Virus record (IMG/VR): IMGVR_UViG_3300020171_000022
Span: 2,449-66,448 of that record
Strand: one strand, 5' to 3'
Source of the DNA: a virus
Length of the DNA stretch: 64,000 bases
Below, piece by piece: positions 1,357 to 27,024 of the stretch. A model generated the notes under the pieces. The model had not been told where the DNA came from. It did not search any database and saw only the letters and a program-made list of their open reading frames with translations. The position numbers and the translations under genes were made by a program. Each line of letters begins with the position of its first letter. Position 1 is the stretch's first letter.

Positions 1357-3290
1357 TGGCAGAATTTAAACCAGCCCAAAGTAGCGATGATTGTTATTTA
1401 AATGGCAGTCTCATCGACTTAACCAGCAATGATCTTCTTTTTGGAGATATTGATGGAGTAAGTCAAGACGCTGGGGTTAGGTTTACCAATGTAACTATTC
1501 CACAAGGAGCAACAATACTAGGAGCATACGTTACATTTCAGGCATATACTTCTTTAAGCGTCGATACATGTATTGTTTTTATAGAAGGAGAAGATGTTGA
1601 TAATGCAGCAACTTTTTTTACTCAGCCCGATTTTGTAGGTAGGGTGAGAACAACCGCCTCTGCAAATGAGGTTATGGGGGCCTGGTCTGCTGATGTTGAT
1701 TATAATTCTCCGAGTGTCATATCTATTATTCAGGAAATTGTCGATAGAGTTGGTTGGGTAAGTGGAAATAATTTAGTCTTATTTTTTACAAACTATTTTT
1801 CAGGCACTGGTGCCTACAGAGATTTCAAATCTTATGATGTCTCTACAACTTTATGTGCTAGATTAACTGTAACCTGGAGTTCTCCGAGCCCAAGTGCATC
1901 ACCAAGCATATCGCCAAGCAGTTCTCCCAGCCTAAGCCCCAGTGCATCTTTAAGTCCCAGTGAATCTCCGTCTTTAAGTCCCAGTGCATCTTTAAGTCCT
2001 TCGGCAAGTATATCTCCATCTGAATCTCCGTCATTATCTCCATCAGCTTCAGAAAGTCCAAGCGAATCACCATCTTTATCCCCTTCTGCATCGTTAAGCC
2101 CCTCTGAAAGTCCTTCGGAGAGTCCTTCCTTGAGCCCCAGTGCGTCATTATCGCCAAGTAAGTCTCCTAGCGTATCACCATCATTAAGTCCTTCTTTAAG
2201 TCCAAGTGTGAGTCCAAGCAAATCCCCCAGCGCATCACCCTCTTTGAGTCCAAGTGCCTCTATAAGCCCTAGTGTTTCACCAAGTAGGAGTCCGAGTATA
2301 TCGCCAAGTGCTTCTCCTTCTCTCAGTCCCAGTGCCTCCGTAAGTCCAAGTAAATCGCCATCAGCAAGTCCCAGTATATCGCCTAGTAGAAGTCCGAGCG
2401 TTTCTCCAAGTATTAGTCCTTCCGAGAGCCCCAGTGCATCGCCGAGTCGTAGTCCCAGCGTTTCCCCAAGCGCAAGTCCATCTTTAAGTCCAAGTGCTTC
2501 AATTTCTCCCAGCAGAAGCCCAAGTATTTCACCAAGTCCGAGTCCTTCTGTCAGCCCAAGCAAATCTCCGAGCAGAAGCCCAAGTGTTTCACCATCTATA
2601 AGTCCTTCTCCGAGCCCTAGTAAATCTCCGAGTGCCAGTCCCAGTAAGTCTCCTAGTGCCTCTCCATCTGCCAGTTGGAGTAGAAGTCCGTCCAGAAGTC
2701 CAAGTGTTTCACCAAGTCCAAGCCCCAGCCCATTGCCATCAATAGTTGTAAGTCCTTCATTGAGTCCAAGTATGTCACCATCCGTCTCGCCAAGCGCCAG
2801 TCCCAGTATAGAACCTGCGGAGACACATAAAGGCATTGCAATGAATTTATTCAATCAGGCCATATCAACTTATAGCAATTTTAATTTCAATTCCATTGCC
2901 TGTTTTAATGGAACATATTTCGGAGCAACAGATACTGGAATATATCCATTAGGCGGAGATACGGATAATGGAAGCGATATAGATTCAAAGATTAAAACAG
3001 GGTCTATGGATTTTGGAGATACGTTGATTAAATATATCAGGGATGTGTGGATTACACATAGAGCAGACGGGTATCTTAAACTTAAAATATTCGTGGATGA
3101 GGATACGACAACTACGGTTGAGAAACAGACCAGTATTGTCAGTGATGAAGTTAGAGAGGAAAGAATTAAACCCCCCCGTGGATTAAAGGGTAGATTTTAT
3201 ACGGTAGAACTTCAGAATATCGGAGGTGCAGACTTTGATATTGATAGTTTGAATCTGCTTGTGGAATCAATTCAAAGGAAGATTCGTTAG
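1356..3290 (+). CDS. virion protein with two globular domains joined by a ~310 aa Ser-Pro linker
   Basis: SPSx tetrapeptide repeats at about 1878-2810; RBS AAGGAG; coupled to the upstream gene. Confidence 0.8.
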   Translation: MAEFKPAQSSDDCYLNGSLIDLTSNDLLFGDIDGVSQDAGVRFTNVTIPQGATILGAYVTFQAYTSLSVDTCIVFIEGEDVDNAATFFTQPDFVGRVRTTASANEVMGAWSADVDYNSPSVISIIQEIVDRVGWVSGNNLVLFFTNYFSGTGAYRDFKSYDVSTTLCARLTVTWSSPSPSASPSISPSSSPSLSPSASLSPSESPSLSPSASLSPSASISPSESPSLSPSASESPSESPSLSPSASLSPSESPSESPSLSPSASLSPSKSPSVSPSLSPSLSPSVSPSKSPSASPSLSPSASISPSVSPSRSPSISPSASPSLSPSASVSPSKSPSASPSISPSRSPSVSPSISPSESPSASPSRSPSVSPSASPSLSPSASISPSRSPSISPSPSPSVSPSKSPSRSPSVSPSISPSPSPSKSPSASPSKSPSASPSASWSRSPSRSPSVSPSPSPSPLPSIVVSPSLSPSMSPSVSPSASPSIEPAETHKGIAMNLFNQAISTYSNFNFNSIACFNGTYFGATDTGIYPLGGDTDNGSDIDSKIKTGSMDFGDTLIKYIRDVWITHRADGYLKLKIFVDEDTTTTVEKQTSIVSDEVREERIKPPRGLKGRFYTVELQNIGGADFDIDSLNLLVESIQRKIR

Positions 3291-4662: not shown

Positions 4663-5139
4663 ATGGCCTTTAATCCAGAAATACATCAAGTTAAGTTAAT
4701 CATCATTAAGTGTGGTAAAGCATTGCGTGAAGCCAAAGGATTACCCGAAGAGAAAAACATCACTACGCTTTACGAAGAAGCCTCGGCCATATTAGGGATG
4801 CCTACAATTTCTACGACAACTCAAGATGCTGACCACCTTCCAGCACCACATGAGATGGTGAGGGAAAATGGGACTCCAATTATTCCTCTTAGAAAGTGTC
4901 CCCGGTGTGGAAAAGAAGCAATGCAGATGTTCGGGCTTTGCCATACCTGTAAGGATGCTGAGGGTGAGAATGGCGAAATAGGAAAATATAAGGTAAAGTT
5001 TGAATGTAAGGAATGTCAGTTTCAAGAGAAATCAGATAAACCCATGGTATTATGGCTTCAAGAAATGGGTGTGGACTTTGGGATGATGTCTAAGAAGAAC
5101 CTTGGGATTAAGACCATCACTGATGATGGAATTAAGTAA
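4663..5139 (+). CDS. hypothetical Zn-ribbon protein
   Basis: CPRC, CHTC and CKEC motifs; RBS GAGG. Confidence 0.6.
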   Translation: MAFNPEIHQVKLIIIKCGKALREAKGLPEEKNITTLYEEASAILGMPTISTTTQDADHLPAPHEMVRENGTPIIPLRKCPRCGKEAMQMFGLCHTCKDAEGENGEIGKYKVKFECKECQFQEKSDKPMVLWLQEMGVDFGMMSKKNLGIKTITDDGIK

Positions 5140-13600: not shown

Positions 13601-13619
13601 GCTTATTGCACTGTTAGCC
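13601..13619 (+). other. attI-like recombination site of array A
   Basis: GCTTATTGCACT-GTTAGCC; core is complementary to GGCTAAC of the first attC; near-identical to the site at 25370-25388. Confidence 0.7.
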
Positions 13620-13799
13620 CTTTATTAATGAACGATAATCTTTTAATTTTTCCCTAAATCTTTGCTTCATCATATATGCATCGTAATCATAATTCCAATG
13701 ATCATATTTCCGAGCCATATAGGATTCGGCAATATCTAACAACTGGGCTAACAAGTCATTCGAGCGGACGTTTGATAGTCCACTATTTTCTTTGGTCAT
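13614..13799 (-). CDS. cassette protein, start encoded inside attC (MTKENSG leader)
   Basis: GAGG + ATG in the attC loop; TAA overlaps the GTTA core. Confidence 0.65.
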   Translation of the reverse strand: MTKENSGLSNVRSNDLLAQLLDIAESYMARKYDHWNYDYDAYMMKQRFREKLKDYRSLIKG

Positions 13800-13825
13800 A
13801 AATGCCTCTTCCGCTCAATTCTGCG

Positions 13826-14011
13826 TTATGTTGATTCTAATTTACTACCACACTCAGGACAAAAATTAACATTTACTATTGATGCAGAATTTTCTTTGTC
13901 TGGATATCCTGGTAAATATTTCTGCCAAATGGGTTGAGGATTTATTAATTCACACCAACATAACAATTCATTCGAGCGGACGTTTGATAGTCCACTATTT
14001 TCTTTGGTCAT
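13826..14011 (-). CDS. cassette Zn-finger protein with MTKENSG leader
   Basis: CWC...FCPECG; no Met outside the attC. Confidence 0.65.
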   Translation of the reverse strand: MTKENSGLSNVRSNELLCWCELINPQPIWQKYLPGYPDKENSASIVNVNFCPECGSKLEST

Positions 14012-14046
14012 AAATGCCTCTTCCGCTCAATTCTGCGTTATATGGA

Positions 14047-14268
14047 TTAAATTCTAAATGTAGGTTGATCTTTCCCTTCTCTCCAGAAAATGAATCGTTG
14101 CCACCAAAATTCTTTGGAAGCATAATTATATTCACACACAGGGCAAGTATAAAGATTTGGAGCATCTGAATTGCACCGAGGACAAAAACCAAACACAAGT
14201 CTTATCTTGCCCAAAATTCTATTCCTATTTGTTTGCAGTGACATAAAAGGAAGCCTCCGTATAATCAT
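14047..14268 (-). CDS. cassette Zn-finger protein
   Basis: CPRC...CPVC; fills the interval between two attC sites. Confidence 0.6.
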   Translation of the reverse strand: MIIRRLPFMSLQTNRNRILGKIRLVFGFCPRCNSDAPNLYTCPVCEYNYASKEFWWQRFIFWREGKDQPTFRI

Positions 14269-14308
14269 TTATTCCAGCCGATGCTAAAAAGCACGGCTGA
14301 CCTCTACG

Positions 14309-14851
14309 TTATACCTCAAAATAATGAATCTCATTACCCCATTGTTCCCAACCTTCACGTTGCTCTCTACTGAATACATCCATCTTCACGGCTTCAGGAT
14401 ACCAAAGGCTTATCATCTTATACGCAATGTCAGGCTTCCTGCTGTGCTGTCTTGCCGGTTCTCTTATCACTGTCATAAACTTACCCCTTGTCTCAGTGCT
14501 CACTGGCTGAAATTTTGGTTTGTAGAACCATGTTAAGTATTCATGAGCATACCGAACAGAGAAGGCGGGAGCTACACCGTTGCATTTATCCCATATCAGC
14601 CTTGCATGTCTGCGATAGCCTCTCTGCTCCATCGCCAGTTCGCCTATCATCAAAAACTCGTCAATGCCCCACAGAAAAACAGAATGCGTCTTTGTCGCCA
14701 TTGGGAAAACTTCCTTGTCTAAAAGCCCGAAAATTGCCATAACATCAAGCGTGGCGTAATCAAGGTTTTTCCCTTGCCGTGGCCTTGCACTTCTCAGACC
14801 CCCCTTCTTTTTAGGCCAAGGGGGATCAATAACGAAAATATTAAATGACAT
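14309..14851 (-). CDS. MT-A70 family adenine methyltransferase (cassette)
   Basis: IDPPW, HSRKP, FSRE..GW..WGNE motifs. Confidence 0.9.
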   Translation of the reverse strand: MSFNIFVIDPPWPKKKGGLRSARPRQGKNLDYATLDVMAIFGLLDKEVFPMATKTHSVFLWGIDEFLMIGELAMEQRGYRRHARLIWDKCNGVAPAFSVRYAHEYLTWFYKPKFQPVSTETRGKFMTVIREPARQHSRKPDIAYKMISLWYPEAVKMDVFSREQREGWEQWGNEIHYFEV

Positions 14852-15172
14852 AACCAGCCAATCAACCCGACCGGGAATAGTCCTGGCGGGTTATCCGCAC
14901 GTTATTTTTCCTCTTCTTCCCCTTCACACTCATGCCCAATTTCGCCTGAAGTATCCGCCCCACATTTTAGGCAGACATACCCAGGCCCATTATCGATGAA
15001 AAATGAATACATATCTATTACTTTTCCTCTTTGTCATCAATTATTCGCCATCTAAGATGATAGGCAGCTATTTTTTTGATGTCGAACAAATGCCCATTTA
15101 ATACCTTCAATTCTTTGATTAATGCCTCAATCATTGGCAGAATCTTCTCTAAGTCAAGCATCTCTCACCTCA

Positions 15173-15358
15173 TCAATCTGGCAATTTGATATTGAAATCT
15201 CCCAATGCCTGATTCACTTTCAATAACAATTCTTTTCCATTTTCTATAAATTTTGCTTGCTCTTCGTTAATCGGGTCCTGACTTATCATCCAAAGCAATT
15301 TTGTTCGACAGTCAAGAAGGGCATTAATGAGCTCTTTGATTTCCGTGTTGGTCAACAT
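15173..15358 (-). CDS. hypothetical protein
   Basis: 61 aa, RBS GGGGAG, coupled to neighbouring small ORFs. Confidence 0.55.
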   Translation of the reverse strand: MLTNTEIKELINALLDCRTKLLWMISQDPINEEQAKFIENGKELLLKVNQALGDFNIKLPD

Positions 15359-15556
15359 TTATCTCCCCACCTCCCCCCTGTAAAGATCCTTCCAGTTATC
15401 CCTTGACTCCTTTAGGTTGGCAACCTCTGCCTCCAACTCCTTGATAATTGTCTCATCCCAATCATGCTTGGCAAGCAACTCCTTGATACGTTGAGTAAGT
15501 TGTTTTACATATTCATAATTTTTAGGCTTAGGTCTCATCTCTTCCCCCTTTATGTT

Positions 15557-15766
15557 CTAAATAGGAGTAGTCTCGTTATTGTTCACATTCTTTCGCCCCC
15601 TGAATCGCAATTCAAGGGCATTAGGCGTATTTCTGTATGCATCACACCTGTCCATGCGAATATGATCTTTTAGTCCAATCAAATCAAAATCTTTCTCACC
15701 GCAAAAGGGGCAACATAACAAGTCATTAGAGCGGACGTTTGATAGCCCGCTATTTTCTTTGGTCAT
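15557..15766 (-). CDS. cassette Zn-finger protein with MTKENSG leader
   Basis: GGAGG + ATG inside attC; CPFCG...H motif. Confidence 0.65.
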   Translation of the reverse strand: MTKENSGLSNVRSNDLLCCPFCGEKDFDLIGLKDHIRMDRCDAYRNTPNALELRFRGRKNVNNNETTPI

Positions 15767-15801
15767 TCATACCTCCGCCGCTCAATTTTACGTTGGGCGG
15801 A

Positions 15802-15981
15802 TCAATCATGGACATAATCCATAATCTCTCCGGTTGAACAAACACCCTCAAGTAGTTCGGCATTAGTGGGTGTAATAATCACCGAAACATGGGGGTGACA
15901 ATTATCGCACAGGAATTTAAGTAATGGGCGGCAAATGGTGTCAAACTCGGATCTTTGTTGGTCTGTCAGTATCATGGTCAT
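15802..15981 (-). CDS. cassette hypothetical protein (59 aa; not in the ORF track)
   Basis: MTMILTDQQRSEFDTICRPLLKFLCDNCHPHVSVII...; RBS AAGGAG. Confidence 0.6.
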   Translation of the reverse strand: MTMILTDQQRSEFDTICRPLLKFLCDNCHPHVSVIITPTNAELLEGVCSTGEIMDYVHD

Positions 15982-16062
15982 CTCCTTTTAAATTAAGGTT
16001 CTGGGCAAATCGCCCAACCAGCGGGTCCAGCGGATGGCCAAGAGCCACCCCTGACCCAGACG

Positions 16063-16224
16063 TTATGTGGAACTAAATGTTGGTTCTTCATCTCTCATCA
16101 CTATTGCCGATTGTTTGCCCTCACACTCGTCTGGGCATGTATAAATATCAAATCTTGAAAGTGGGTATAGTTGTCTTCCAAAAACCATTTCCTTTCCACA
16201 TTGTGGACATTTGGGTATTTCCAT
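16063..16224 (-). CDS. cassette Zn-ribbon protein
   Basis: MEIPKCPQCG...CPDEC; RBS GGAG; stop in the core site. Confidence 0.6.
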   Translation of the reverse strand: MEIPKCPQCGKEMVFGRQLYPLSRFDIYTCPDECEGKQSAIVMRDEEPTFSST

Positions 16225-16385
16225 GGTAATCTCCATTAAAAAATGATAAGACCTCCACATAACAAGTCAATCCAGCGGACGGTCAATAAGCAGGTATCTC
16301 GGCCCAAACATCATCCTGACCTTCTGTTATGCTTTCGCATTGGGCAAGGTGCTTTCGCCACTATTGGCCGCCGCTGATCTCTACG

Positions 16386-16616
16386 TTATCTGATAAAAAT
16401 TGCGAACAATCCCCCAATGGTGCATCCAACCAGAGCAGATCCGCCACCAATGCATTGCGCAACGATTGCGGAGGTTTCTGTCGTAAGCAATAAATGTGAT
16501 CCAAGTAATGTAAAAAATGCACCAAAAATAATAATACAAGAACAAAGAAAAAGAAGAGTATGATTATCCCGACAGATAACAACGGCATCGATCAGACGCC
16601 GAATAAAACTTGTCAT
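16386..16616 (-). CDS. cassette membrane protein, start inside attC
   Basis: two hydrophobic helices; ATG in the attC loop; TAA in the core site. Confidence 0.6.
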   Translation of the reverse strand: MTSFIRRLIDAVVICRDNHTLLFLCSCIIIFGAFFTLLGSHLLLTTETSAIVAQCIGGGSALVGCTIGGLFAIFIR

Positions 16617-16655
16617 TTTTTACCATCCCTTCTCCGGCGCAGATCATGCCGGACG

Positions 16656-16934
16656 TTAGGTGTCACAAATCAATAATTTGACTTTTGCATCGACAAGTCG
16701 CCTTTTTAAAAAGCTTATATCCCGCTCGAAACGCCGGATGATATATTGCCATGCATCATGTTTGCTTTGATAAATATCCCCGATGCGAAGACATTTTTTG
16801 ATGCCATCAAGATAAAGCCATCCAGATTTAGTTGTTTTAAGTATTAAATATGGTCCCTTGGGTTCTTGGCCCTCAATAATCCAACACCTAACAATCGGCT
16901 GCACTTGAGCCTTAACAACTCTTTTAGATTTCAT
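16656..16934 (-). CDS. cassette hypothetical protein, start inside attC
   Basis: AAGGAGG-AACC-ATG in the attC loop; TAA in the core site. Confidence 0.7.
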   Translation of the reverse strand: MKSKRVVKAQVQPIVRCWIIEGQEPKGPYLILKTTKSGWLYLDGIKKCLRIGDIYQSKHDAWQYIIRRFERDISFLKRRLVDAKVKLLICDT

Positions 16935-17038
16935 GGTTCCTCCTTACCGGCCAAGTGAGCCGGAACGTTATCTGACATTAAACAATTCATTCTCAAAAAA
17001 TATATATGATATGATGATGGAGAATGGTAGGTTCATGT

Positions 17039-18599: not shown

Positions 18600-19119
18600 C
18601 TTCTTCCTCCTTTCTTATTTTTTCGTGAAGTTCACGATGGCAATTTGAGCAAAGAGAAATACATTTTTTTAATTCTTTTAATGTTCGTTCTGTCGGTTTA
18701 CTTGAAAAAATTTTTCCGCTCGGAGTTTCTTTTTGTCCGGGATTTATATGGTGAAGATCAATTGCACAAAATGAACGATTATATCCGCACACTGAACAAT
18801 GAATAAGATCGAGTTTATTTAATATTTGCATCCAATATTCTTTGTTTTTTTTGTAAAAATTAGCATTATGTTTTTTTTGAATCTCTCTGTTTCCAGGTAT
18901 GGAAAGCCACATATTTCTATGTTTAAGACGACCCTTTAAATTACAATCCTTACATTTTTTGGGATAACGGCGCTTGGGTTCATATCTTTTATATTTTTTA
19001 ATAAAAAATTCATTTAATGATTTTATTTCTCCGCACTTTGTGCATCTTTTCTCGGTCAAAGTAATACGACTTGCATTTAGGACACCTTCTAACATCGGAA
19101 CATCTGGGATACCATCCAT
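18586..19119 (-). CDS. HNH-type homing endonuclease
   Basis: KRCTKCGEIK, CSVCG, DLHHINP, LCSNCHRELH. Confidence 0.8.
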   Translation of the reverse strand: MDGIPDVPMLEGVLNASRITLTEKRCTKCGEIKSLNEFFIKKYKRYEPKRRYPKKCKDCNLKGRLKHRNMWLSIPGNREIQKKHNANFYKKNKEYWMQILNKLDLIHCSVCGYNRSFCAIDLHHINPGQKETPSGKIFSSKPTERTLKELKKCISLCSNCHRELHEKIRKEEEDGRE

Positions 19120-19273
19120 GACCGCACCTCAGACATTTGACACTTTGAATTTTAATCTTCATGGTTTAATTGTATCCCTTATAAGTAAGTTTGTCAAGTT
19201 TTATTTTTCCATCGAAAATGCCCGCCTCCGGATCCCCTCTTCTAAGTTCCGGTTAAAGCCAGGCGGGGATGGC

Positions 19274-19498
19274 TTATTTGTCCCACTCTGCACGTTTAGA
19301 AATTTCAGCCTCGATTAGGGGCAATATTCTTTTTATTTCCCGAATTCTAATTTCAAAAGAGCTTAACAAACCCTTTCCATCCTTTAAGGATTCTTGCCAA
19401 CCCTCTAGGGTTAAATACCCATATTGATCTTTTTTCCAATGCCAACTGAAATGCCACGAGGAATCTATGATGTCATAAATTTCAGATTCTAAGCTCAT
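19274..19498 (-). CDS. hypothetical protein
   Basis: 74 aa in the leftward operon, RBS AGGGGAG. Confidence 0.55.
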   Translation of the reverse strand: MSLESEIYDIIDSSWHFSWHWKKDQYGYLTLEGWQESLKDGKGLLSSFEIRIREIKRILPLIEAEISKRAEWDK

Positions 19499-19510
19499 CT
19501 CCCTGTCTCC

Positions 19511-19699
19511 TTATTTCTTAATCTTCAAGGTCGTCTCTAAACCCGTTATCCTTCCTGTCAAACTCCCAATGTCTTTATCGTTCTGGTATACCATTTTTCT
19601 TATCTCATCTGCTTTCCAATCTCGCCAAATATAGCCTGCTTCAAAACTTGACAACATAAGGGCCAAGATAAATATTATCCAAACAATTGTCTCTCTCAA
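19511..19699 (-). CDS. small membrane protein
   Basis: N-terminal transmembrane helix. Confidence 0.55.
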   Translation of the reverse strand: MRETIVWIIFILALMLSSFEAGYIWRDWKADEIRKMVYQNDKDIGSLTGRITGLETTLKIKK

Positions 19700-19886
19700 G
19701 TTCCATCACCTCCAGCGCTAAATTTAATTCCTGAAGCTTCAGGGCTATCTCCGCCTGCATCTCAAGCAGAACCCCAATATCCCCCTGGAAAGACTGATCG
19801 ATTTGGAGGCTTCTCCAGGTGAAGCCTATTGCAACCCCCAGAAGCAATATCAGGAATATTTTTATAACTTTCTCCCACATAAACAT
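19641..19886 (-). CDS. small membrane protein
   Basis: N-terminal transmembrane helix plus coiled coil; RBS AAGGAGG. Confidence 0.5.
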   Translation of the reverse strand: MFMWEKVIKIFLILLLGVAIGFTWRSLQIDQSFQGDIGVLLEMQAEIALKLQELNLALEVMELERDNCLDNIYLGPYVVKF

Positions 19887-19964
19887 TCAACCTCCTTAAT
19901 AGCCATAAGATAAGTTTGAGCTTCCGATAATGGATGAAATTTTTGATTCTAAACATCAAACGAA

Positions 19965-20312
19965 TCATTCTATTCCCTCGTCGGTGGGTTCATATGGGGC
20001 AACTTTTTTCTTTCTCCCTTTTTTCGGTTTGACATAAAAAGGACTTTTATCTTCGGAAAGACTTTTTAACGTTTCAGGAAACTTTTCGGCATGTTCTACG
20101 GGAGGAACATCCCGAAATCTTCCAGAATCAGAAGTTCCTTTTGCCGCCTCAATTTCTGCCTTCTTCCGCCTATTTCTTCTTGGCTTCGGAGGTTCCGGGC
20201 GATTGATTTCGCCGATGAGAACTTTGGTTTCGATGGCATGAAGAGCAATTGCAAGAGACCTTTGCGCCTCCAATATAAGCCGCTTGATTTCCGATAAGTT
20301 AATCGTTTCCAT
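19965..20312 (-). CDS. hypothetical basic protein
   Basis: 115 aa, RBS AAGGAGG. Confidence 0.65.
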   Translation of the reverse strand: METINLSEIKRLILEAQRSLAIALHAIETKVLIGEINRPEPPKPRRNRRKKAEIEAAKGTSDSGRFRDVPPVEHAEKFPETLKSLSEDKSPFYVKPKKGRKKKVAPYEPTDEGIE

Positions 20313-20712
20313 GATTTACCTCCTTTTTATGTTTTGTGATATGGTAATTATTACATCTTGGGCACTGATAAATCTTAAAGCTCGTCCAGTCCGCCGTTTT
20401 TTGACCATACTTCATTTTGGTAGCAATTGCGGTGACAGCATCAATCTCTGAATCGTAACTTTGCTTCTTCCCGCAGAGGCCTTTTGATAGAATCTCTTTT
20501 ACCTCCTTCCTGGGCAGGCATCCTTGACTTTAGACACCTGCCCCTTTGCTAGCCTCCCCCTTCTGCCGACTCTCACGACTTGAAGGTTAACCCCTCCGTT
20601 GCCTTATCGGCTGTCCCCTGCCCCTGCCCCGAAGGTCGATGAGGTCTTATGTATGGACACGGAGGTGATGGTCGTTTATATGCCTTTTGCCTTCCCTTTT
20701 CCTTTTGTTTAC

Positions 20713-20741
20713 ATTAAAGCATATTTTTTACCTGTTGTCAA
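20713..20741 (-). promoter_or_regulatory. sigma70-type leftward promoter
   Basis: TTGACA-17 bp-TTTAAT with extended TG; faces the recombination operon and array A. Confidence 0.65.
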
Positions 20742-20994: not shown

Positions 20995-21819
20995 ATGAAT
21001 GAACTTCAAACTCAAATAAACCTTAAACAAAAATTAGATAAGATCGATAAACAGGTCTACGGAGAAGTGTTTGAGGGTTTCTGTGGATCAAGGTTGAGAA
21101 TCTTAATTGCAATGTGGGAGAAGGGGGAGGTGATTATTTCGGATTTTAGGGGAGGTAAAATCCGAACTTGGAATAAATTATCCATTGAAACTGGTAGGAG
21201 TGATAAATCTCTCAAACGCTGGCATGATCTTTATAAGAAATGTCCTGATAAGGAAAAATATATAAGAATCGCAGAAAAGCAAGCCGAGGAATGGACGGAA
21301 AAGGTGTTAAAACTTGGCTGGGAAGCCCTTCTATTGTCCGGTTCAAAGGAATGGTATACACCAAAGGAATATATCGATTCGGTTTATGAAGTCCTATCCG
21401 AAATAGATTTAGACCCCGCCTCATGTAAAGAAGCTAATCGAACCGTTAAAGCCAAGAAATTTTATTCAAAAGAAGATGATGCTCTCTCTTGTTCATGGAT
21501 AGGTAAGATATTTTTAAATCCACCATACGGCAATGACGGCCCTCCTTTTGTTGAAAAGTTAATTCAAGAAATTAAAGCCGGAAATGTTATCGAAGCTATC
21601 TTACTGGTCAATTCCAGGGCCACAGATGCAGAATGGTATCAACCTCTTTATAATGGACTTATTTGTTTTACGGATCACCGTATAGATTTTGATTCACCTG
21701 ATGAAAAAAATACGAGTTCGACTCATGGCAGTTGTTTTATTTATTTTGGGCCTAATGAAAAAAAATTTGCTGATTCATTTTCAAAACATGGAAGCATTTT
21801 AAAGAGATTTAATGGGTAA
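20995..21819 (+). CDS. phage DNA N6-adenine methyltransferase
   Basis: EWYTP, DLDPAS, FLNPPY motifs; extra N-terminal helical domain. Confidence 0.88.
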   Translation: MNELQTQINLKQKLDKIDKQVYGEVFEGFCGSRLRILIAMWEKGEVIISDFRGGKIRTWNKLSIETGRSDKSLKRWHDLYKKCPDKEKYIRIAEKQAEEWTEKVLKLGWEALLLSGSKEWYTPKEYIDSVYEVLSEIDLDPASCKEANRTVKAKKFYSKEDDALSCSWIGKIFLNPPYGNDGPPFVEKLIQEIKAGNVIEAILLVNSRATDAEWYQPLYNGLICFTDHRIDFDSPDEKNTSSTHGSCFIYFGPNEKKFADSFSKHGSILKRFNG

Positions 21820-22731: not shown

Positions 22732-23023
22732 GGGAGATCATCGAGGGCATCTACTTCTAGTGAGTTGCGGCCAATAGGGTGAAAACCAAAATAAGAGATT
22801 GCATAAGACAATCCATATGAGTGAAAGGCTCTTCTATTGGCCGTCAACTCCAGTGATTTGTTATCTTGCTTGACTCAATAGGAATGACAAAAAGTGCTAA
22901 CCCGAATAACACTGACAAATCATTCGGCTGACGGGCAGCAAACCGGAACCGTAATAGTTTCGGGGTTAAGCAAGATAACGTAGAGGTCAGCGGCGCTTTG
23001 GGTGTCCGCTGGAGTGATTGGTT

Positions 23024-23209
23024 ATGCCAGATATAATCCAAGAGATCCACCAAATCGAAGAAATTGCGTGGCAATGGTTTGCAGAGATATATCCACATGA
23101 ATGCTATGCCAGTTGGCCTGACCGATTCTGGGACTTCTTCCATATCAAATGTCCTAATGTGACACGTGAACAGATGGAACGGATACTTTCAGAAACGGAT
23201 GATGCATAA
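23024..23209 (+). CDS. cassette hypothetical protein
   Basis: ATG within GTTATGC box; TAA within GCATAAC. Confidence 0.6.
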   Translation: MPDIIQEIHQIEEIAWQWFAEIYPHECYASWPDRFWDFFHIKCPNVTREQMERILSETDDA

Positions 23210-23280
23210 CGTAGAGGTCAGCGGCGCTTTGGGTGTCCGCTGGAGTGATTGGTTAGGCGAAAACCACGAAAGGAGATTAT

Positions 23281-23469
23281 ATGGAAGATAACGAAAAATG
23301 TACAGTGCAATGTGACTCAAGGGTTGGTTCAGTATGTATGAAATATGCAAAAATGATTATGCGAAATAAAGAATCAAATAAATATGACCATGTTAATTCC
23401 ACAGAAGTAGGGATAAAAGTCCCGCAATGTTTATTTGCCGATAGTAAACGGCAAGGACACGTTGCCTAA
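23281..23469 (+). CDS. cassette Cys-rich protein
   Basis: RBS AAGGAG; stop in GCCTAAC. Confidence 0.65.
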   Translation: MEDNEKCTVQCDSRVGSVCMKYAKMIMRNKESNKYDHVNSTEVGIKVPQCLFADSKRQGHVA

Positions 23470-23525
23470 CGTAGAAATCAGCGGGAGCCTTTGGCAATCC
23501 GCTGGATTGACTGGTTAGGTGATTT

Positions 23526-23744
23526 ATGACCTTTGAATTATTTAATTGCACCCAAGTTCTTTTACGAGAGATTGCCATGCCCAAAGTAAGGCAAAAAGAT
23601 ATTTCTGCTACCTATGCTCTTGCGCTGCGGAGTTCCGATCCAACTGATTGGAAATCTGTAAATGAGGCAATCATAAAAAGATGGAGCCTATCTGGGTTAA
23701 AGCGAATTAAAGATATGGCTTGGTCTGGAAAATGTTTCACCTAA
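23526..23744 (+). CDS. cassette hypothetical protein
   Basis: 72 aa; RBS AGGTGA overlaps the attC box; stop in ACCTAAC. Confidence 0.7.
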   Translation: MTFELFNCTQVLLREIAMPKVRQKDISATYALALRSSDPTDWKSVNEAIIKRWSLSGLKRIKDMAWSGKCFT

Positions 23745-23818
23745 CGCAAAGGTCAGCGGCGTGTCGCACGTCCGCTGGAGTGACTTGTTATATTTTTTAT
23801 TAAAGTGAGGGAAGAAAA

Positions 23819-23965
23819 ATGAAATGCACCGATTGCGGCAAAGAACTTTCCAAGGAACAAGAAAAACATAATGAAGAAATAGCAGTAAAATCAGGAACAA
23901 AGAAATTAGATATGTGTGGTAATTGTTGGGCAGATTATTGCCGGCACGCTGAAACGGGTCAATGA
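23819..23965 (+). CDS. cassette Zn-finger protein (48 aa; not in the ORF track)
   Basis: MKCTDCGKEL...MCGNCW. Confidence 0.6.
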   Translation: MKCTDCGKELSKEQEKHNEEIAVKSGTKKLDMCGNCWADYCRHAETGQ

Positions 23966-24031
23966 ATATAACGTGCGGATAACCCGCCGCTATTGGCGGT
24001 CGGGTTGATTGACTGGTTATACGGAGGTCTT

Positions 24032-24184
24032 ATGTCTTTATTTTCTGATGAAGAGATTTGTATCGGTTGTAAATATGCCATGTTTCACGATTGTTGCCAT
24101 AAATTTTGTTTTTGTGATGAAAACCATGAAAGTGATAGAGACCATGTTTGTGGCAAGTGCCCATATAAAATTAATTCCACATAA
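24032..24184 (+). CDS. cassette Cys-rich protein
   Basis: RBS GGAGG; eight Cys in 50 aa; stop in ACATAAC. Confidence 0.6.
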   Translation: MSLFSDEEICIGCKYAMFHDCCHKFCFCDENHESDRDHVCGKCPYKINST

Positions 24185-24254
24185 CGTAGAGATCAGCGGT
24201 GCTTTAAGCATCCGCTGGAGTGATTGGTTATCTGATCTTTATACGGGAGGATAT

Positions 24255-24425
24255 ATGACTGATAAAGAAAAATTGGTGGGGATACGACAAGCATTGAAAG
24301 ACATAATAGCCTATCCTAAAGAAGGGGGTTATCCTTCCGAGGTAGTTTACGATAAGTTTGCGTATAAACGTATCGTGAAATCGTATCGTGATGGGCTTAA
24401 ACAAGTTCTTCGTGACTACAGATAA
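24255..24425 (+). CDS. cassette hypothetical protein
   Basis: RBS GGAGG; MTDKEKL...; stop in AGATAAC. Confidence 0.65.
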   Translation: MTDKEKLVGIRQALKDIIAYPKEGGYPSEVVYDKFAYKRIVKSYRDGLKQVLRDYR

Positions 24426-24451
24426 CGATGAAGATAAGCGGGCGGGCACAA

Positions 24452-25048
24452 ATGATGAATGAAAATAAAAGGGCTATTTCCGCTCCGCTTGATCGCCTTG
24501 TTATACCTCATGGGGGTTTCCGGTGTATCGTGGCCGATCCGCCGTGGCATTATGGCGTATGGGGCGGGGGTAGCGGAAGAGGATCGCGAGGTCTTGTTTT
24601 GGATGGGAAAAGTGTTCCGATGCCTTATCCAACTATGACAATTGATGAAATCGCCGCACTCCCCGTTGATAGATGCGCCGCAAATAATTGCGACCTGTAT
24701 CTATGGACAACGCAGAAATACTTGCCAGATGGTTTCAGGATTATGCAAATATGGGGCTTCCGGTATTGTCAAACCTTGACTTGGTGTAAGATTCCGCGAG
24801 GACTTGGGCAAGGCGGATTGTTCTGTCCGACAACAGAATTTATACTATTGGGGCGCAAAGGAACAATGCCACAGGGTAAGCGGCGTATTGATTCGACATG
24901 GTGGCAAGTCAAACGCCCGCATAACTCGCACAGCACAAAGCCTGAATTTTTTCAAGATTTGATTGAACAGGTGAGCAATGAGCCACGGCTGGAATTGTTT
25001 GCCCGCCGTTTTCGTTTAGGATGGACGGTATGGGGTAATGAGGTATAA
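24452..25048 (+). CDS. MT-A70 family adenine methyltransferase (cassette, start inside attC)
   Basis: ADPPW, YPTM, HSTKP, ELFAR..GW..WGNE; no Met between the attC and DPPW. Confidence 0.9.
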   Translation: MMNENKRAISAPLDRLVIPHGGFRCIVADPPWHYGVWGGGSGRGSRGLVLDGKSVPMPYPTMTIDEIAALPVDRCAANNCDLYLWTTQKYLPDGFRIMQIWGFRYCQTLTWCKIPRGLGQGGLFCPTTEFILLGRKGTMPQGKRRIDSTWWQVKRPHNSHSTKPEFFQDLIEQVSNEPRLELFARRFRLGWTVWGNEV

Positions 25049-25129
25049 CGTAGAGGTCAGCCGCACTTTTGAGTGTCGGCTGGAGTGACTGGTTATACGT
25101 TTTTTAATTTTATCATGGAGGTTAAAAAC

Positions 25130-25375
25130 ATGGCAACACAATTATCAAGAGAGAAAGTAGCACAAGCATGGTGCAAGCCTACAACGAGTCATAAAGTGAT
25201 GGATGTAGAGTTGGCAGAAGCCTTCGCCGAGATTCTTGATGAAATATGGTCTAAGCCCTGGCTCGGAAATGCCACTACGGACGAATTGCTGACTGAAATC
25301 AGAACACGCATTGAGATGGATGGTAAACTTCAATACCGAACTATTGATGTAGTTTTTACATCTCATTCTGTATAA
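25130..25375 (+). CDS. cassette hypothetical protein
   Basis: RBS GGAGG; stop in GTATAAC of the attI-like site. Confidence 0.7.
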   Translation: MATQLSREKVAQAWCKPTTSHKVMDVELAEAFAEILDEIWSKPWLGNATTDELLTEIRTRIEMDGKLQYRTIDVVFTSHSV

Positions 25376-25388
25376 CAGTGTAATAAGC
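25370..25388 (-). other. attI-like recombination site of array B
   Basis: - strand GCTTATTACACT-GTTATAC; matches 13601-13619 at 15 of the first 16 nt. Confidence 0.7.
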
Positions 25389-25623
25389 TGGCAGAGATGA
25401 TGAGGAAGATTTAGGGGAGATTCACGTGGGCATCCTACTCCGCAAAGCCGGTCCCCTGGAAAAGGGGAAGGGACGAGCGAACCTGGAATCTTTCCTGACG
25501 TTGCCTGACGAAAAACAGGATGGGCCACCTTCCGGCGTAACCTGATTAAAGTAGGTATGGTGGGACGGCCATGGGCCAATCACATCATTAAGCCGGTCAT
25601 TTAAAATAAGGGCCTGATTCTTT

Positions 25624-27024
25624 ATGATAATAAAAGCTGATTCTCGACATATCCCATTATCTGACCAGTCCGTGAACTGCATTATCACATCTCCACCTTA
25701 TTGGTCTTTGCGGAAATATGACATTCCCGATTTGATTTGGGATGGGGATGAAAAATGTGAACATAATTTTGATTTGAAGAGTTTGGAAATCCCTACTGGA
25801 ACTGGTGGAAATTGGCAACAAGCAAATAACGGTCCTGGATTGGCAATGGGTAAAGATCAGACTCGCTTTAAAGGTGATTGCAGAGAAGCAAATAAAGTCG
25901 ACACGGTAAAGATTCAACAAGGGTTCTGTCTTAAATGTAGTGCCTGGCGTGGTCAACTTGGCCTTGAACCCACCATTGAACTCTACCTGAAACATCTTCT
26001 TCAGATTATGGATGAGTGTAAGAGAGTGCTGAGGGATGATGGGACGATGTTTATCAACTTAGGCGACTCCTATTATGGTGGTAAGGGCATGAGTTCTCAG
26101 GCATGGTCAACAGATCATCAGGATCGCGAAACTCTTCAAAAGTCTCAACATCAAATTTGTGGAATGGGTGAAGCAAGACCAGCAGATTTACCGCAAGGAA
26201 ATATTCTTCCTAAATCCCTCTGCCTCATTCCTGAACGGTTCGCTATTGAGATGGTCAACCAGGGATGGATACTCAGAAATAAGATAATATGGAAAAAGCC
26301 AAATTGTATGCCTTCGTCAGCAAAAGATAGATTTACGGTCGACTGGGAAGGAATTTTCTTCTTTGTGAAGAGTAAGAAATATTGGTTTGAGCAACAGTAT
26401 GAACCTTTTTTGACAGAAAGTAATGCCGAGCGTCCACGAATGGGACAGGGAAATCAAACTATTTACAATCAAAAAAGGCGGGGTTTAATAAAAGGCAATG
26501 TTCAAATAGGAAGCGAACAGAGACACTCCGCCAATATAAATTACGGCTTAAAGGGCCGTAACCGTCGCTGTGTCTGGACAATAAGCACGGCCGCTTACTC
26601 CGAGGCCCATTTTGCAACCTTCCCAGAAGCCCTTGTCGAACCGATGATTAGGGCAGGATGTCCTAAATTCGTTTGTAATAAGTGTGGGAAGGCGAGGGAG
26701 AAGATTGTTGATGTTGAATATATTAAAAATAGACCGTCGGCGGGCAACGATCCACGAAGTAGGAATGAGGATAAACTGGCTGGAGGTAGGGGACCAGGTG
26801 GATATCGTGGGAATAATCTTCTTAAACAAACTAAAGAAATTGGCCTCACCGATTGCGGTTGTAACGCTGGTTTCCGGCCTGGAATAGTCCTTGATCCATT
26901 CTGCGGAAGTGGAACAGTCTTAAGGGTAGCTGAGAGGTTAGGCAGGCAGGTTATAGGGATTGACTTGGGATATGAGGAATTAGCAGATAAGAGAATATCT
27001 TGGAATCAGATGGAGTTAATTTAA
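25624..27024 (+). CDS. DNA methyltransferase (N4-cytosine/N6-adenine family)
   Basis: ITSPPYW, HFATFP, VLDPFCGSGT. Confidence 0.92.
   Translation: MIIKADSRHIPLSDQSVNCIITSPPYWSLRKYDIPDLIWDGDEKCEHNFDLKSLEIPTGTGGNWQQANNGPGLAMGKDQTRFKGDCREANKVDTVKIQQGFCLKCSAWRGQLGLEPTIELYLKHLLQIMDECKRVLRDDGTMFINLGDSYYGGKGMSSQAWSTDHQDRETLQKSQHQICGMGEARPADLPQGNILPKSLCLIPERFAIEMVNQGWILRNKIIWKKPNCMPSSAKDRFTVDWEGIFFFVKSKKYWFEQQYEPFLTESNAERPRMGQGNQTIYNQKRRGLIKGNVQIGSEQRHSANINYGLKGRNRRCVWTISTAAYSEAHFATFPEALVEPMIRAGCPKFVCNKCGKAREKIVDVEYIKNRPSAGNDPRSRNEDKLAGGRGPGGYRGNNLLKQTKEIGLTDCGCNAGFRPGIVLDPFCGSGTVLRVAERLGRQVIGIDLGYEELADKRISWNQMELI

Follow-up and report, generated by a model that had tools for sequence, protein, structure and literature searches.

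Probable loop-borne start codons in long attC sites of two reversed-polarity cassette arrays in a groundwater tailed phage

A window of 64,000 nt from a groundwater tailed-phage contig (IMG/VR record IMGVR_UViG_3300020171_000022; the window is the whole 64-kb stretch that was analysed) was found to carry two arrays of integron-type gene cassettes with 17 attC sites in total. The arrays are best read, with a probability that we put at roughly 0.75, as attC-first cassettes of reversed polarity in which enlarged attC loops hold a Shine-Dalgarno sequence (SD) and the start of the cassette's own open reading frame (ORF). The minus-strand array has nine attC sites within 3.4 kb and the plus-strand array (22977-25094, +) eight within 2.1 kb, at 22977-23023, 23208-23254, 23468-23516, 23743-23789, 23970-24018, 24183-24229, 24424-24502 and 25047-25094; one array lies at the far end of each of two divergent early operons. 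Both have at least two attC sites close together and no intI nearby, and were classed as CALINs. A complete integron, with an intI adjoining attI and an array, was not found: the 66-kb record, rated 58% complete, gave no match to tyrosine recombinase (PF00589) or integron integrase (TIGR02249), and a related phage record rated 100% complete gave none to PF00589. Sites range from 47 to 127 nt and fall into at least six sequence families in the window, so that structure is conserved while sequence and length vary. The cargo includes two MT-A70 methyltransferases, both identified with Pfam on the proposed sense strand.

A sequence-only reading of the window had described six long attC sites of 86-88 nt, each with a loop ATG reading in frame into the cassette ORF. 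All six are present, measuring 78-80 nt from AAC to GTT and 86-88 nt with the extended boxes, they are integron-type attC hairpins by structure, and in every one an in-frame loop ATG opens into the next ORF. Site E1 (13750-13827, -) has GAGG-N5-ATG in the loop with the ATG at 13799, from which a 61-aa ORF (13614-13799, -) runs in the last cassette of the minus-strand array. Site E2 (13962-14039, -) has the same motif with the ATG at 14011 and opens a 61-aa zinc-ribbon-like ORF (13826-14011, -), whose match to Zn_Ribbon_1 is weak and below the cut-off. In E3 (15717-15794, -) the loop holds GGAGG and an ATG at 15766, where the first (15557-15766, 69 aa) of five consecutive small ORFs between E3 and the short site S2 begins (14902-15766, -). 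E1, E2 and E3 are copies of one family, 87-97% identical, and the window therefore holds four independent long families rather than six independent cases. Site E5 (16890-16969, -; 80 nt from AAC to GTT) carries AAGGAGG-N4-ATG with the ATG at 16934 and opens a 92-aa ORF (16656-16934, -), which stops at a TAA inside the next TAAC box. The SD proposed for these four sites was thus recovered at each.

The other two long sites are less clear, and the lack of a good SD before their loop ATGs counts against our reading. In E4 (16578-16657, -; 80 nt) the loop ATG at 16616 has a weak SD, and the SD with the best spacing belongs to another ATG, at 16626, which is out of frame; the ORF from the loop encodes 76 aa and is hydrophobic (16386-16616, -). 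Site P4 (24424-24502, +; 79 nt) has an in-frame ATG at 24428, immediately 3' of the AACG box, and loop ATGs in the same frame at 24452/24455; its frame is already open from 24428, and a clear SD is absent before the loop ATGs. The ORF starting inside P4 (24428-25048, +) encodes an MT-A70 methyltransferase (PF05063, E 4.5e-23, domain from residue 31) and ends with a TAA in the next TAAC box. The loop ATG is the sole in-frame ATG of the ORFs opened in E2 and E5, as had been claimed, and also of that opened in E4. Among the predicted N-termini encoded by attC are MTKENSGLSNVR... and MKSKR.... For the 92-aa ORF, the protein collection returned an identical gene call and no other homologue, and hence no N-terminus for comparison.

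Cassettes with short attC sites start differently, in agreement with the sequence-only reading: 8 of the 11 have their own SD and an ATG downstream, as at S3 (16016-16064, -), where the next ORF has the SD AAAGGAG, and the other three have an ATG at the GTTATG box (14851, 16260 and 23024). The first of these follows S2 (14852-14903, -) and opens an MT-A70 DNA methyltransferase cassette (14309-14851, -; PF05063, E 1.2e-12) with its TAA stop inside a TAAC box. S1 (14262-14310, -) is a degenerate short site with GATT in place of GTT as the 3' box. A seventh long site, S4 (16261-16387, -; 127 nt), had been overlooked. Its loop ATGs open no more than a 15-codon upstream ORF, which stops inside the 3' arm, 6 nt ahead of the GTTATG box.

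Conservation of SD, ATG and frame was assessed in homologous sites, the check that the sequence-only reading had itself proposed; the sites were sought by hairpin-arm patterns containing neither SD nor ATG. E1-type sites kept all three, with a frame open into an ORF of 61-135 aa, in 12 of 12 distinct contexts and before at least 10 different ORFs; the copy in contig L085 stays in frame despite a deletion of 1 nt from its 3' arm. Copies of E5 were found in L156, L157 and L082, and in E5-type sites the outcome was mixed: SD and ATG are present in 4/4 phage contigs, one copy retaining both despite having no 5' arm, and the ATG is in frame in three of the four. The early codons of E5-type copies change non-synonymously (V/A, V/I, K/Q/P), and since DNA pairing shapes the residues encoded by attC, a conserved 3' arm is little evidence about the peptide itself. 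The start module is also kept in both P4-type sites, the homologous long site in L086 preceding a different ORF, and the last cassette of L082, which belongs to a further long family, has its loop start in frame (1/1). A loop start was thus seen in five independent long families (E1, E4, E5, the P4 type and the last L082 cassette) and is absent from the S4 family.

The most serious alternative, although we consider it unlikely, is that the loop SD and ATG make up a leader ORF and nothing more: ribosomes entering at the loop would open the hairpin and either stop translating or be coupled to the true start, at the GTT box or beyond it, and the in-frame fusions would be tolerated by-products. 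Published examples of such a mechanism are the small ORFs of attC and ORF-11 of attI1 (PMC8876359, sections 3.1 and 3.2; PMC11511950). Two sites have the pattern of a leader ORF that ends before or overlaps the next gene start, namely S4, with its 15 codons ending 6 nt ahead of the box ATG, and the E5-type copy in L156, which opens only a 24-codon ORF; the TGA of this ORF overlaps the SD belonging to a methyltransferase-like gene with its own start (a DPPY motif was seen by eye, and Pfam gave no match). L157 has a further in-frame ATG, at the GTTATG box. The six long sites are unlike leader ORFs, however, because each runs in frame into its cassette ORF. Coupling alone would not demand that the E1-type frame be open for 61-135 codons in every context, nor that it survive the L085 deletion, and the three window ORFs with a single in-frame ATG have no SD near the box.

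It is improbable in the extreme that the in-frame ATGs are functionless products of chance, or of inheritance along with copies of a small number of attC families. One family does account for three of the six sites, and when each loop was shuffled the chance of an in-frame open ATG per site was 0.13-0.16, which is not negligible (0.02-0.06 when an SD-like motif was also required). Against this, the feature recurs in five independent families, S4 excepted, and the ORFs differ between copies while the frame is kept in 12/12, 3/4 and 2/2 cases, where inheritance of the attC alone would leave about one third in frame.

The proposed dual use of one sequence, as recombination hairpin on single-stranded DNA and as start region on the message, held in part. 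The hairpins are genuine attC structures and the loop SD and ATG are conserved as a start, but this is no rule for long attC sites, as S4 and L156 show; a rough automated survey, whose script mis-assigned at least one known site, placed the start downstream in 5 of 15 long attC sites. The sequence-only reading had further suggested that the hairpin may gate initiation. In predicted RNA folds the AUG lies in the terminal loop with an unpaired probability of about 0.8-0.9 for stable sites (E5: 0.78, with a fold of -25 kcal/mol). As modelled, this exposure points to display of the start codon rather than its occlusion. The stretch was also looked for among RNA runs, and no run contains it.

Polarity had been missed by the sequence-only reading. 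In all 17 window cassettes the bottom strand of attC is the one that carries the gene, contrary to the classical arrangement, and each attC is therefore the 5' part of its ORF's own cassette and not the 3' end of the preceding one; the classical layout of an ORF on the top strand with the attC at its 3' end was not found. Codon-usage log-odds favoured the sense strand in 16 of the 17 cassette intervals (sums of 214 vs -1.4 bits), the sole exception being the cassette of the 76-aa ORF, and in 14/17 cassettes the last ORF stops at the TAA of a TAAC box. As a control, intervals with the same attC family in bacteria were scored, in which ORFs were top-sense in 7, bottom-sense in 2, in neither sense in 7 and in both in 1. 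Cassette boundaries were further visible in the metagenome contigs L163 and L173, which have one cassette in common, identical from the GATAAC of an E1-type attC to ...TCTAAC past the stop codon; beyond it, L163 has the terminal motif described below and L173 another attC. In run X2, one contig lacks exactly one 231-nt unit of attC plus ORF, with 191 nt on the shorter side; this deletion sits between identical 50-nt repeats, and plain homologous recombination could equally yield it. Complementary boxes of 8-15 nt flank the ORFs. Such boxes around an ORF are a signature of circular cassettes.

We give very little weight to the possibility that polarity is classical after all, each hairpin belonging to the upstream ORF and lending its start module to the neighbouring cassette. 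The complementarity of the flanking boxes is compatible with both polarities, and S1 and P5 are 85% identical and each lie 3' of an MT-A70 gene. The two MT-A70 proteins are only 24% identical, however, so this link does not reflect co-descent; the bulged bases and the common terminal half-site indicate the opposite polarity, and the homology between L163 and L173 takes in the upstream attC and stops at the TAAC past the ORF.

The identification of the sites as attC rests on hairpin architecture. Inverted AAC...GTT core boxes close an imperfect hairpin in 16 of the 17 sites, the exception being S1 with its GATT. Window sites have an unpaired spacer of 5-6 nt, and the arm facing AAC bears two bulged bases, usually G followed by T, with six base pairs between them. 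This layout marks the attC bottom strand (Nivina 2016, PMC5027507) and was seen likewise in the bottom strand of the aadA1 attC of plasmid R100, used as a control. A strict scan for the bulge motif picked up 12/17 sites, nine with G/T bulges and the rest with the variants C/T, T/T and G/A. Extra bases were commoner on the 3' arm of the gene-sense strand at 14/17 sites, with one tie and two opposite cases (S1 among them, aligned 2 nt out of register). The gene-sense strand gave the more stable fold at 12/17 sites, and its purine fraction exceeded 0.5 at 15/17. The short attC family is present in 69 bacterial or archaeal genome contigs, and all five tested genomes carrying it have an IntI above the TIGR02249 cut-off. 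Recombination of the window sites by an integron integrase, with crossover at AA|C of the bottom strand, would fit three indirect observations: the limits of homology at TAAC in L163 and L173, the common terminal half-site that begins after AAC, and the contig short of one cassette unit in run X2.

It is hardly credible that the phage hairpins act as signals at the RNA level (as terminators, processing sites or translational operators) and merely resemble attC: they follow gene sense in both operons, form stable RNA folds and lack an accompanying integrase, but the G-6 bp-T bulges and AAC/GTT boxes are integrase-binding features with no known RNA role, the same attC family occurs in genomes with an integron integrase, the ORFs are flanked by the complementary boxes, and no U-tracts follow the hairpins, a terminator scan being near chance (17 found vs 12.1 +/- 3.7 expected).

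Under the attC-first reading, the mobile unit in the sense of the gene is C-attC-(SD)-ORF-TAA, the hairpin being a 5' leader that travels with its gene. The variable terminal loop is enlarged to about 35-40 nt in at least four attC families, where it bears SD and ATG. Site architecture, strand, cassette limits and the retention of SD, ATG and frame are observed features. Ribosomes would begin translation in the loop and cross the 3' arm and the GTT box to enter the cassette ORF, the hairpin dictating an addition of 15-25 N-terminal residues. With no recombinase of its own in the phage, a host integron integrase would presumably move the cassettes.

Clusters of attC sites in phages are already known in kind, as are small ORFs inside attC or attI, and the cassettes described here are a variant of these. 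The classical cassette aadA1 (In2/Tn21, plasmid R100) shares the AAC/GTT boxes, the unpaired central spacer and the extrahelical G and T separated by 6 bp; also in common are the variable length of the terminal loop and the complementary boxes flanking each ORF. It differs in having the gene on the top strand and the attC at the 3' end, as set out in PMC11511950, whereas phage cassettes use the bottom strand with the attC 5'. A classical integron also has intI and Pc, while the phage arrays have neither and are read from the far end toward an attI-like site. [quoted passage not shown] 2023 (PMC9892861), and these resemble the window arrays in that attC sites cluster in virulent phages with no intI, that some cassettes encode methyltransferases and that attC directions diverge; the abstract and section 3.4 of that paper are silent on gene polarity relative to the attC strand, on starts inside attC and on a common terminal site.

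Small ORFs within attC relieve the stem-loop barrier according to Jacquier et al. 2009 (as cited in PMC8876359, section 3.2, and PMC11511950). There, too, a short ORF in attC affects translation of the next gene, and S4 and the L156 copy resemble these cases; in the cases so cited the attC is part of the cassette upstream and the short ORF terminates ahead of the next gene, whereas the phage ATG is mostly fused in frame to its own ORF. ORF-11, ORF-17 and ORF-18 in attI1 supply SD and ATG to cassettes without their own initiation region, and N-terminal fusions are known (PMC8876359, section 3.1). Those ORFs lie in a double-stranded platform site and serve the first cassette only, in contrast to the phage module, which as part of the mobile attC accompanies its gene. 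Synthetic attC sites have been embedded in arbitrary sequence (Nivina et al. 2020, PMC7439510), and since recognition is structural, as described there, attC can overlay other sequence information. Those sites were engineered, whereas the phage loop, 3' arm and box are a natural case encoding SD and N-terminus.

The window sites would thus offer natural overlapping codes, in which the fold that a recombinase recognises on single-stranded DNA contains, in addition, a ribosome-binding site and 15-25 codons; in the literature sections cited here, such overlap occurs by design, in synthetic attC sites, or at the platform site attI1. Software for integrons or gene calling that regards attC as 3' non-coding DNA would assign such genes a wrong start or overlook them, since their start codon sits within attC. 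Accessory early genes, the two MT-A70 methyltransferases among them, are packaged as reversed-polarity, integron-type cassettes at early-operon ends, and the end site common to phage contigs points to integrase-driven exchange of phage accessory genes.

More tentatively, and at somewhat less than even odds, phages may keep a mirror-image pool of attC-first units (a hairpin leader, often with built-in SD and ATG, and an exact end at the TAA stop) that a host integron integrase appends to early operons at their 3' end, where a conserved attI-like half-site, AACAGTGYAATAAGC, would receive them. On this proposal the recombining DNA and the message would have the same fold, because the mRNA has the bottom-strand sequence. 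Phage cassettes would be antisense, and hence silent, in a bacterial integron and bacterial ones silent in a phage, and the two pools would stay apart while using one common recombinase.

The half-site at the end of the minus-strand array is AACAGTGCAATAAGC (13601-13615, -), which has no hairpin after it and is a candidate attI-like insertion point; that at the end of the plus-strand array is AACAGTGTAATAAGC (25374-25388, +). Both arrays end in TAACAGTGYAATAAGC(G/T)G, which begins after AAC and is identical at 17 of 19 positions between unrelated flanks, and this common half-site may be the insertion point. The terminal motif also follows the last cassette in L085, L163 and L175.

The site search combined an arm-alignment scan with a strict motif scan, and gave 17 attC sites: nine in minus sense (13750-16969) and eight in plus sense (22977-25094), each laid out in gene sense as xTAAC-G, a spacer of 5-6 nt, stem, loop, return stem and TTGTTAx. 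Generic hairpin scans were unfit for attC (one found a single site, the other 85 mostly spurious matches), an ungapped inverted-repeat search overlooked bulged attCs, and MAFFT on all 13 sites wrongly aligned the 5' arms. When the 5' arm was aligned to the 3' arm, extra bases fell on the 3' arm at 14 of the 17 sites, typically a G followed by a T six pairs further on; one further site was a tie and two were opposite, one of these two being the short site S1 (14262-14310), whose register was off by 2 nt. The G-6 bp-T pattern is common to the phage sites and the bottom strand of the reference aadA1 attC from plasmid R100 (gene-sense strand TCTAACAATTCG...GCGTTAGAT). Extrahelical bases lie on the AAC's own arm on the top strand and on the opposite arm on the bottom strand, and bottom strands are purine-rich with more stable folds (Nivina et al. 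2016, PMC5027507). Here the gene-sense strand gave the more stable fold at 12 of 17 sites, and its purine fraction exceeded 0.5 at 15 of 17. The short attC family (GTCAGCGG...TCCGCTGGAGTGA) was present in 69 genome contigs, mostly from Syntrophales, Nitrospirota, Acidobacteriota and Planctomycetota, and all five genomes tested with this family encoded an integron integrase scoring higher than the curated cut-off. Because of the bulge layout, the strand bias in stability and purines, and the occurrence of the short family in integrase-bearing genomes, the sites are genuine attCs in integrase-less clusters. Such clusters have already been reported in phages (PMC9892861).

The virus record is linear, and neither an integron integrase nor any other tyrosine recombinase was found in it (66.4 kb, 64 kb of them in the window; completeness rating 58%). 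A virion protein, large terminase, portal or adaptor protein, primase, ERF recombinase and exonuclease are encoded in the window, with early-type minus-strand genes running from ~20.4 kb down to 13.6 kb and plus-strand genes from ~20.6 kb onward. GenBank phages gave no match to the minus-strand array, Pfam gave only sub-threshold matches for eight cassette ORFs, a promoter scan was at chance level (39 observed versus 34.4 +/- 7.5 expected), and no RNA run containing the window sequence was present among the sequencing runs looked through.

In the window it is the attC bottom strand that carries the cassette genes. Pfam supports both MT-A70 methyltransferase genes there, codon-usage log-odds favoured this strand in 16 of 17 cassette intervals (214 versus -1.4 bits), an SD motif precedes nearly all sense ORFs, and 14 of 17 stop at the TAA within the TAAC box that comes next. 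As a control, the same detector was run on bacterial loci with the same attC family, where seven intervals were assigned to the top strand, two to the bottom, seven were unclear and one was open on both; the polarity of these loci is classical. Classical polarity was also considered for the window, as S1 and P5, a short attC of the plus-strand array, each lie behind an MT-A70 gene; it was rejected, as the two MT-A70 proteins are only 24% identical and the cassette boundaries in contigs L163 and L173 run contrary to it. When all open frames were compared with the fetched loci by tblastn, the single meaningful match was between the window ORF 14050-14268 and positions 1927-2159(+) of L121 (49% identity). 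L121 is 2.2 kb long and was binned to a Pseudomonadota MAG; it carries this homologue directly behind an attC, in bottom-sense layout as in the window, and the contig may therefore be phage-derived. In L086, 9385-9630(-), an ORF runs in frame straight across a short attC, since the box TAA falls outside its frame there, and an HNH-like gene is next.

On either side of each ORF stand complementary boxes of 8-15 nt (GTTxxxxx ... x'x'x'x'x'AAC), which are compatible with both polarities, so the decision rested on the terminal half-site and on the L163/L173 homology. Both arrays end, in gene sense, at their 3' side with a common half-site, TAAC followed by AGTGYAATAAGC(G/T)G, in which 17 of 19 positions match while the flanks are unrelated and no hairpin comes after. 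The motif of this half-site (AACAGTGCAATAAGCGG) also stands behind the last cassette in L085, L163 and L175. In viral contigs it had 36 matches, about the estimated chance number, and its extended ...GCGG form occurred only in L085, L175 and L177. One homologous cassette is common to L163 and L173, with identity running from the GATAAC of the upstream E1-type attC to ...TCTAAC past the stop codon; beyond it L163 has the terminal motif and L173 another attC. The common half-site and these limits of identity indicate that the mobile unit is an attC followed by its ORF, with a predicted crossover between AA and C of the gene-sense strand, where bottom-strand cleavage would put it. One contig of sequencing run X2 is missing precisely one unit of 231 nt, bounded by two identical attCs; this is a presence/absence polymorphism, though plain homologous recombination could also have produced it. 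Most joints in run X1 had sides of <30 nt at repeated attCs and were left out of the evidence, as repeat artefacts are possible.

The sequence-only reading had proposed that six long attCs double as translation-start modules, and reading of the sequence bore out all six sites with the loop ATGs and SD motifs that it described, and a separate check of the reading frames agreed. The in-frame ATGs are at 13799, 14011, 15766, 16616, 16934 and 24452/24455, and from each the frame runs on across the 3' arm and GTT box to join the following ORF; three of these ORFs have no second in-frame ATG. The expected attC-encoded N-termini of the cassette proteins are MTKENSGLSNVR... or MKSKR.... In shuffled loops an in-frame ATG arose with a chance of 0.13-0.16 per site, and together with an SD-like motif of 0.02-0.06. 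The sites at 13746, 13958 and 15713 (E1, 13750-13827; E2, 13962-14039; E3, 15717-15794) are three copies of a single family, which leaves four independent families in the window. An additional 127-nt attC at 16261-16387 (S4), absent from that earlier list, has only a 15-codon ORF, which ends inside the 3' arm.

Homologous sites were searched with arm sequences only as baits, leaving out SD and ATG. A metagenome scan for the E1 type gave 12 loci, including one chance match, one cut off at the end and two duplicates; distinct E1-type contexts, with the three window copies included, number 12. SD and ATG are kept in 12/12 and open into ORFs of 61-135 aa, at least ten of them different; in L085 the ORF is in frame despite a 1-nt deletion in the 3' arm. 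Between E1 and E3, three of 51 coding nt differ, all synonymously, versus seven of the 28 nt from AAC to ATG. The type of E5 (16890-16969) occurs in four phage contigs (the window, L156, L157 and L082), where all four copies keep the SD, its spacing, the ATG and the 13 nt behind it, the downstream ORFs are all different, and in three of the four a long ORF continues the frame of the ATG. In L156 the frame closes after 24 codons with a TGA, and this stop codon overlaps the SD of a gene resembling a methyltransferase (a DPPY motif was seen by eye; Pfam gave no match). The L082 copy keeps SD and ATG and has no hairpin, because its 5' arm is gone. The type of P4 (24424-24502) stands before MT-A70 in the window and, in identical frame, before another ORF of 180 aa in L086, and the last L082 cassette carries AAGGAGG-N5-ATG in the loop, in frame. 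Taken together, conservation in the E1, E5 and P4 types and in the last L082 cassette indicates that the reading frame is under selection and that translation most likely starts at the loop ATG in these sites. An exact search of viral contigs for the E1 loop pattern gave 0 matches; homologues of a 92-aa ORF were limited to the protein itself, so there was no N-terminus to compare.

The proposed dual use is partly supported: SD, ATG and frame are conserved across homologues, and it is no general rule, as long loops are not always start modules. An automated survey of 39 attCs, noisy in part, put the start of long sites (≥70 nt) at a loop ATG in six, a downstream ATG in five and an ATG at the box in two, with no ORF in two; for short sites the numbers were one in the loop, 13 downstream, three at the box and seven with no assignable start. 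RNA folds of E4 (16578-16657), E5, P4 and the last L082 site were stable (-22 to -31 kcal/mol), with the AUG in the terminal loop at an unpaired probability of 0.78-0.92 and the SD partly open; E1 to E3 folded weakly. The modelled folds argue for a hairpin that would display the start site rather than gate it.

Small ORFs inside attC sites help the cassette that follows to be translated (Jacquier 2009, cited through PMC8876359 and PMC11511950), attI1 carries SD and ATG modules with ORF-11 (PMC8876359), and engineered attCs have been overlaid on other sequence (PMC7439510). Three features seem novel: arrays whose polarity is reversed throughout, start codons in the attC loop that are fused in frame to the ORF and conserved among phages, and an array-end site common to arrays. 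A limited literature search, covering papers without their supplements, found none on any of these; for arrays with reversed ORF polarity this is no proof of absence.

A stretch of 13 kb contains four genes for DNA methyltransferases (14309-14851(-), 20995-21819(+), 24428-25048(+) and 25624-27024(+); Pfam: two MT-A70, one Dam-like, one N6_N4), two of them as cassettes, which looks like a stock of anti-restriction genes. Contigs in both X1 and X2 skip 1686 nt across the divergent promoter region (19045-20732), a weak signal given sides of only 21 nt. In X1, contigs link 14311/14312, where the minus-strand MT-A70 cassette ends, with 24503/25088 in the plus-strand array; the linked parts are on opposite strands (depths of 8 and 42, sides of 39 and 32 nt), and this could be inter-array exchange at attCs or a repeat artefact. 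Five small ORFs lie between two attCs at 14902-15766(-), unusual for one cassette, and an X1 contig skips 154 nt within this region, from 15123 to 15278. The extended terminal motif in L177 (TAACAGTGCAATAAGCGG, 4832-4847(-)) has no obvious attC upstream and may be an unoccupied insertion site. About 230 nt past the plus-strand array (25390-25620) are without a convincing ORF, the sole candidate being a 144-aa minus-strand frame with a TTG start and no Pfam match. A decayed long attC-like hairpin at ~22760-22866 has GGCCAATAG...CTATTGGCC in common with S4, and 3' of it, in the region 22740-22976, is an ORF-less unit of ~115 nt with 15-nt complementary boxes on its two sides (GTTATCTTGCTTGAC and GTTAAGCAAGATAAC). 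Long AAC...GTT hairpins in L085 (1160-1265 and 2190-2295) contain a GNRA-like element, GGTGGCGAAAGC, also found in the S4 loop, and may represent with S4 a structured long-attC family or another RNA element.
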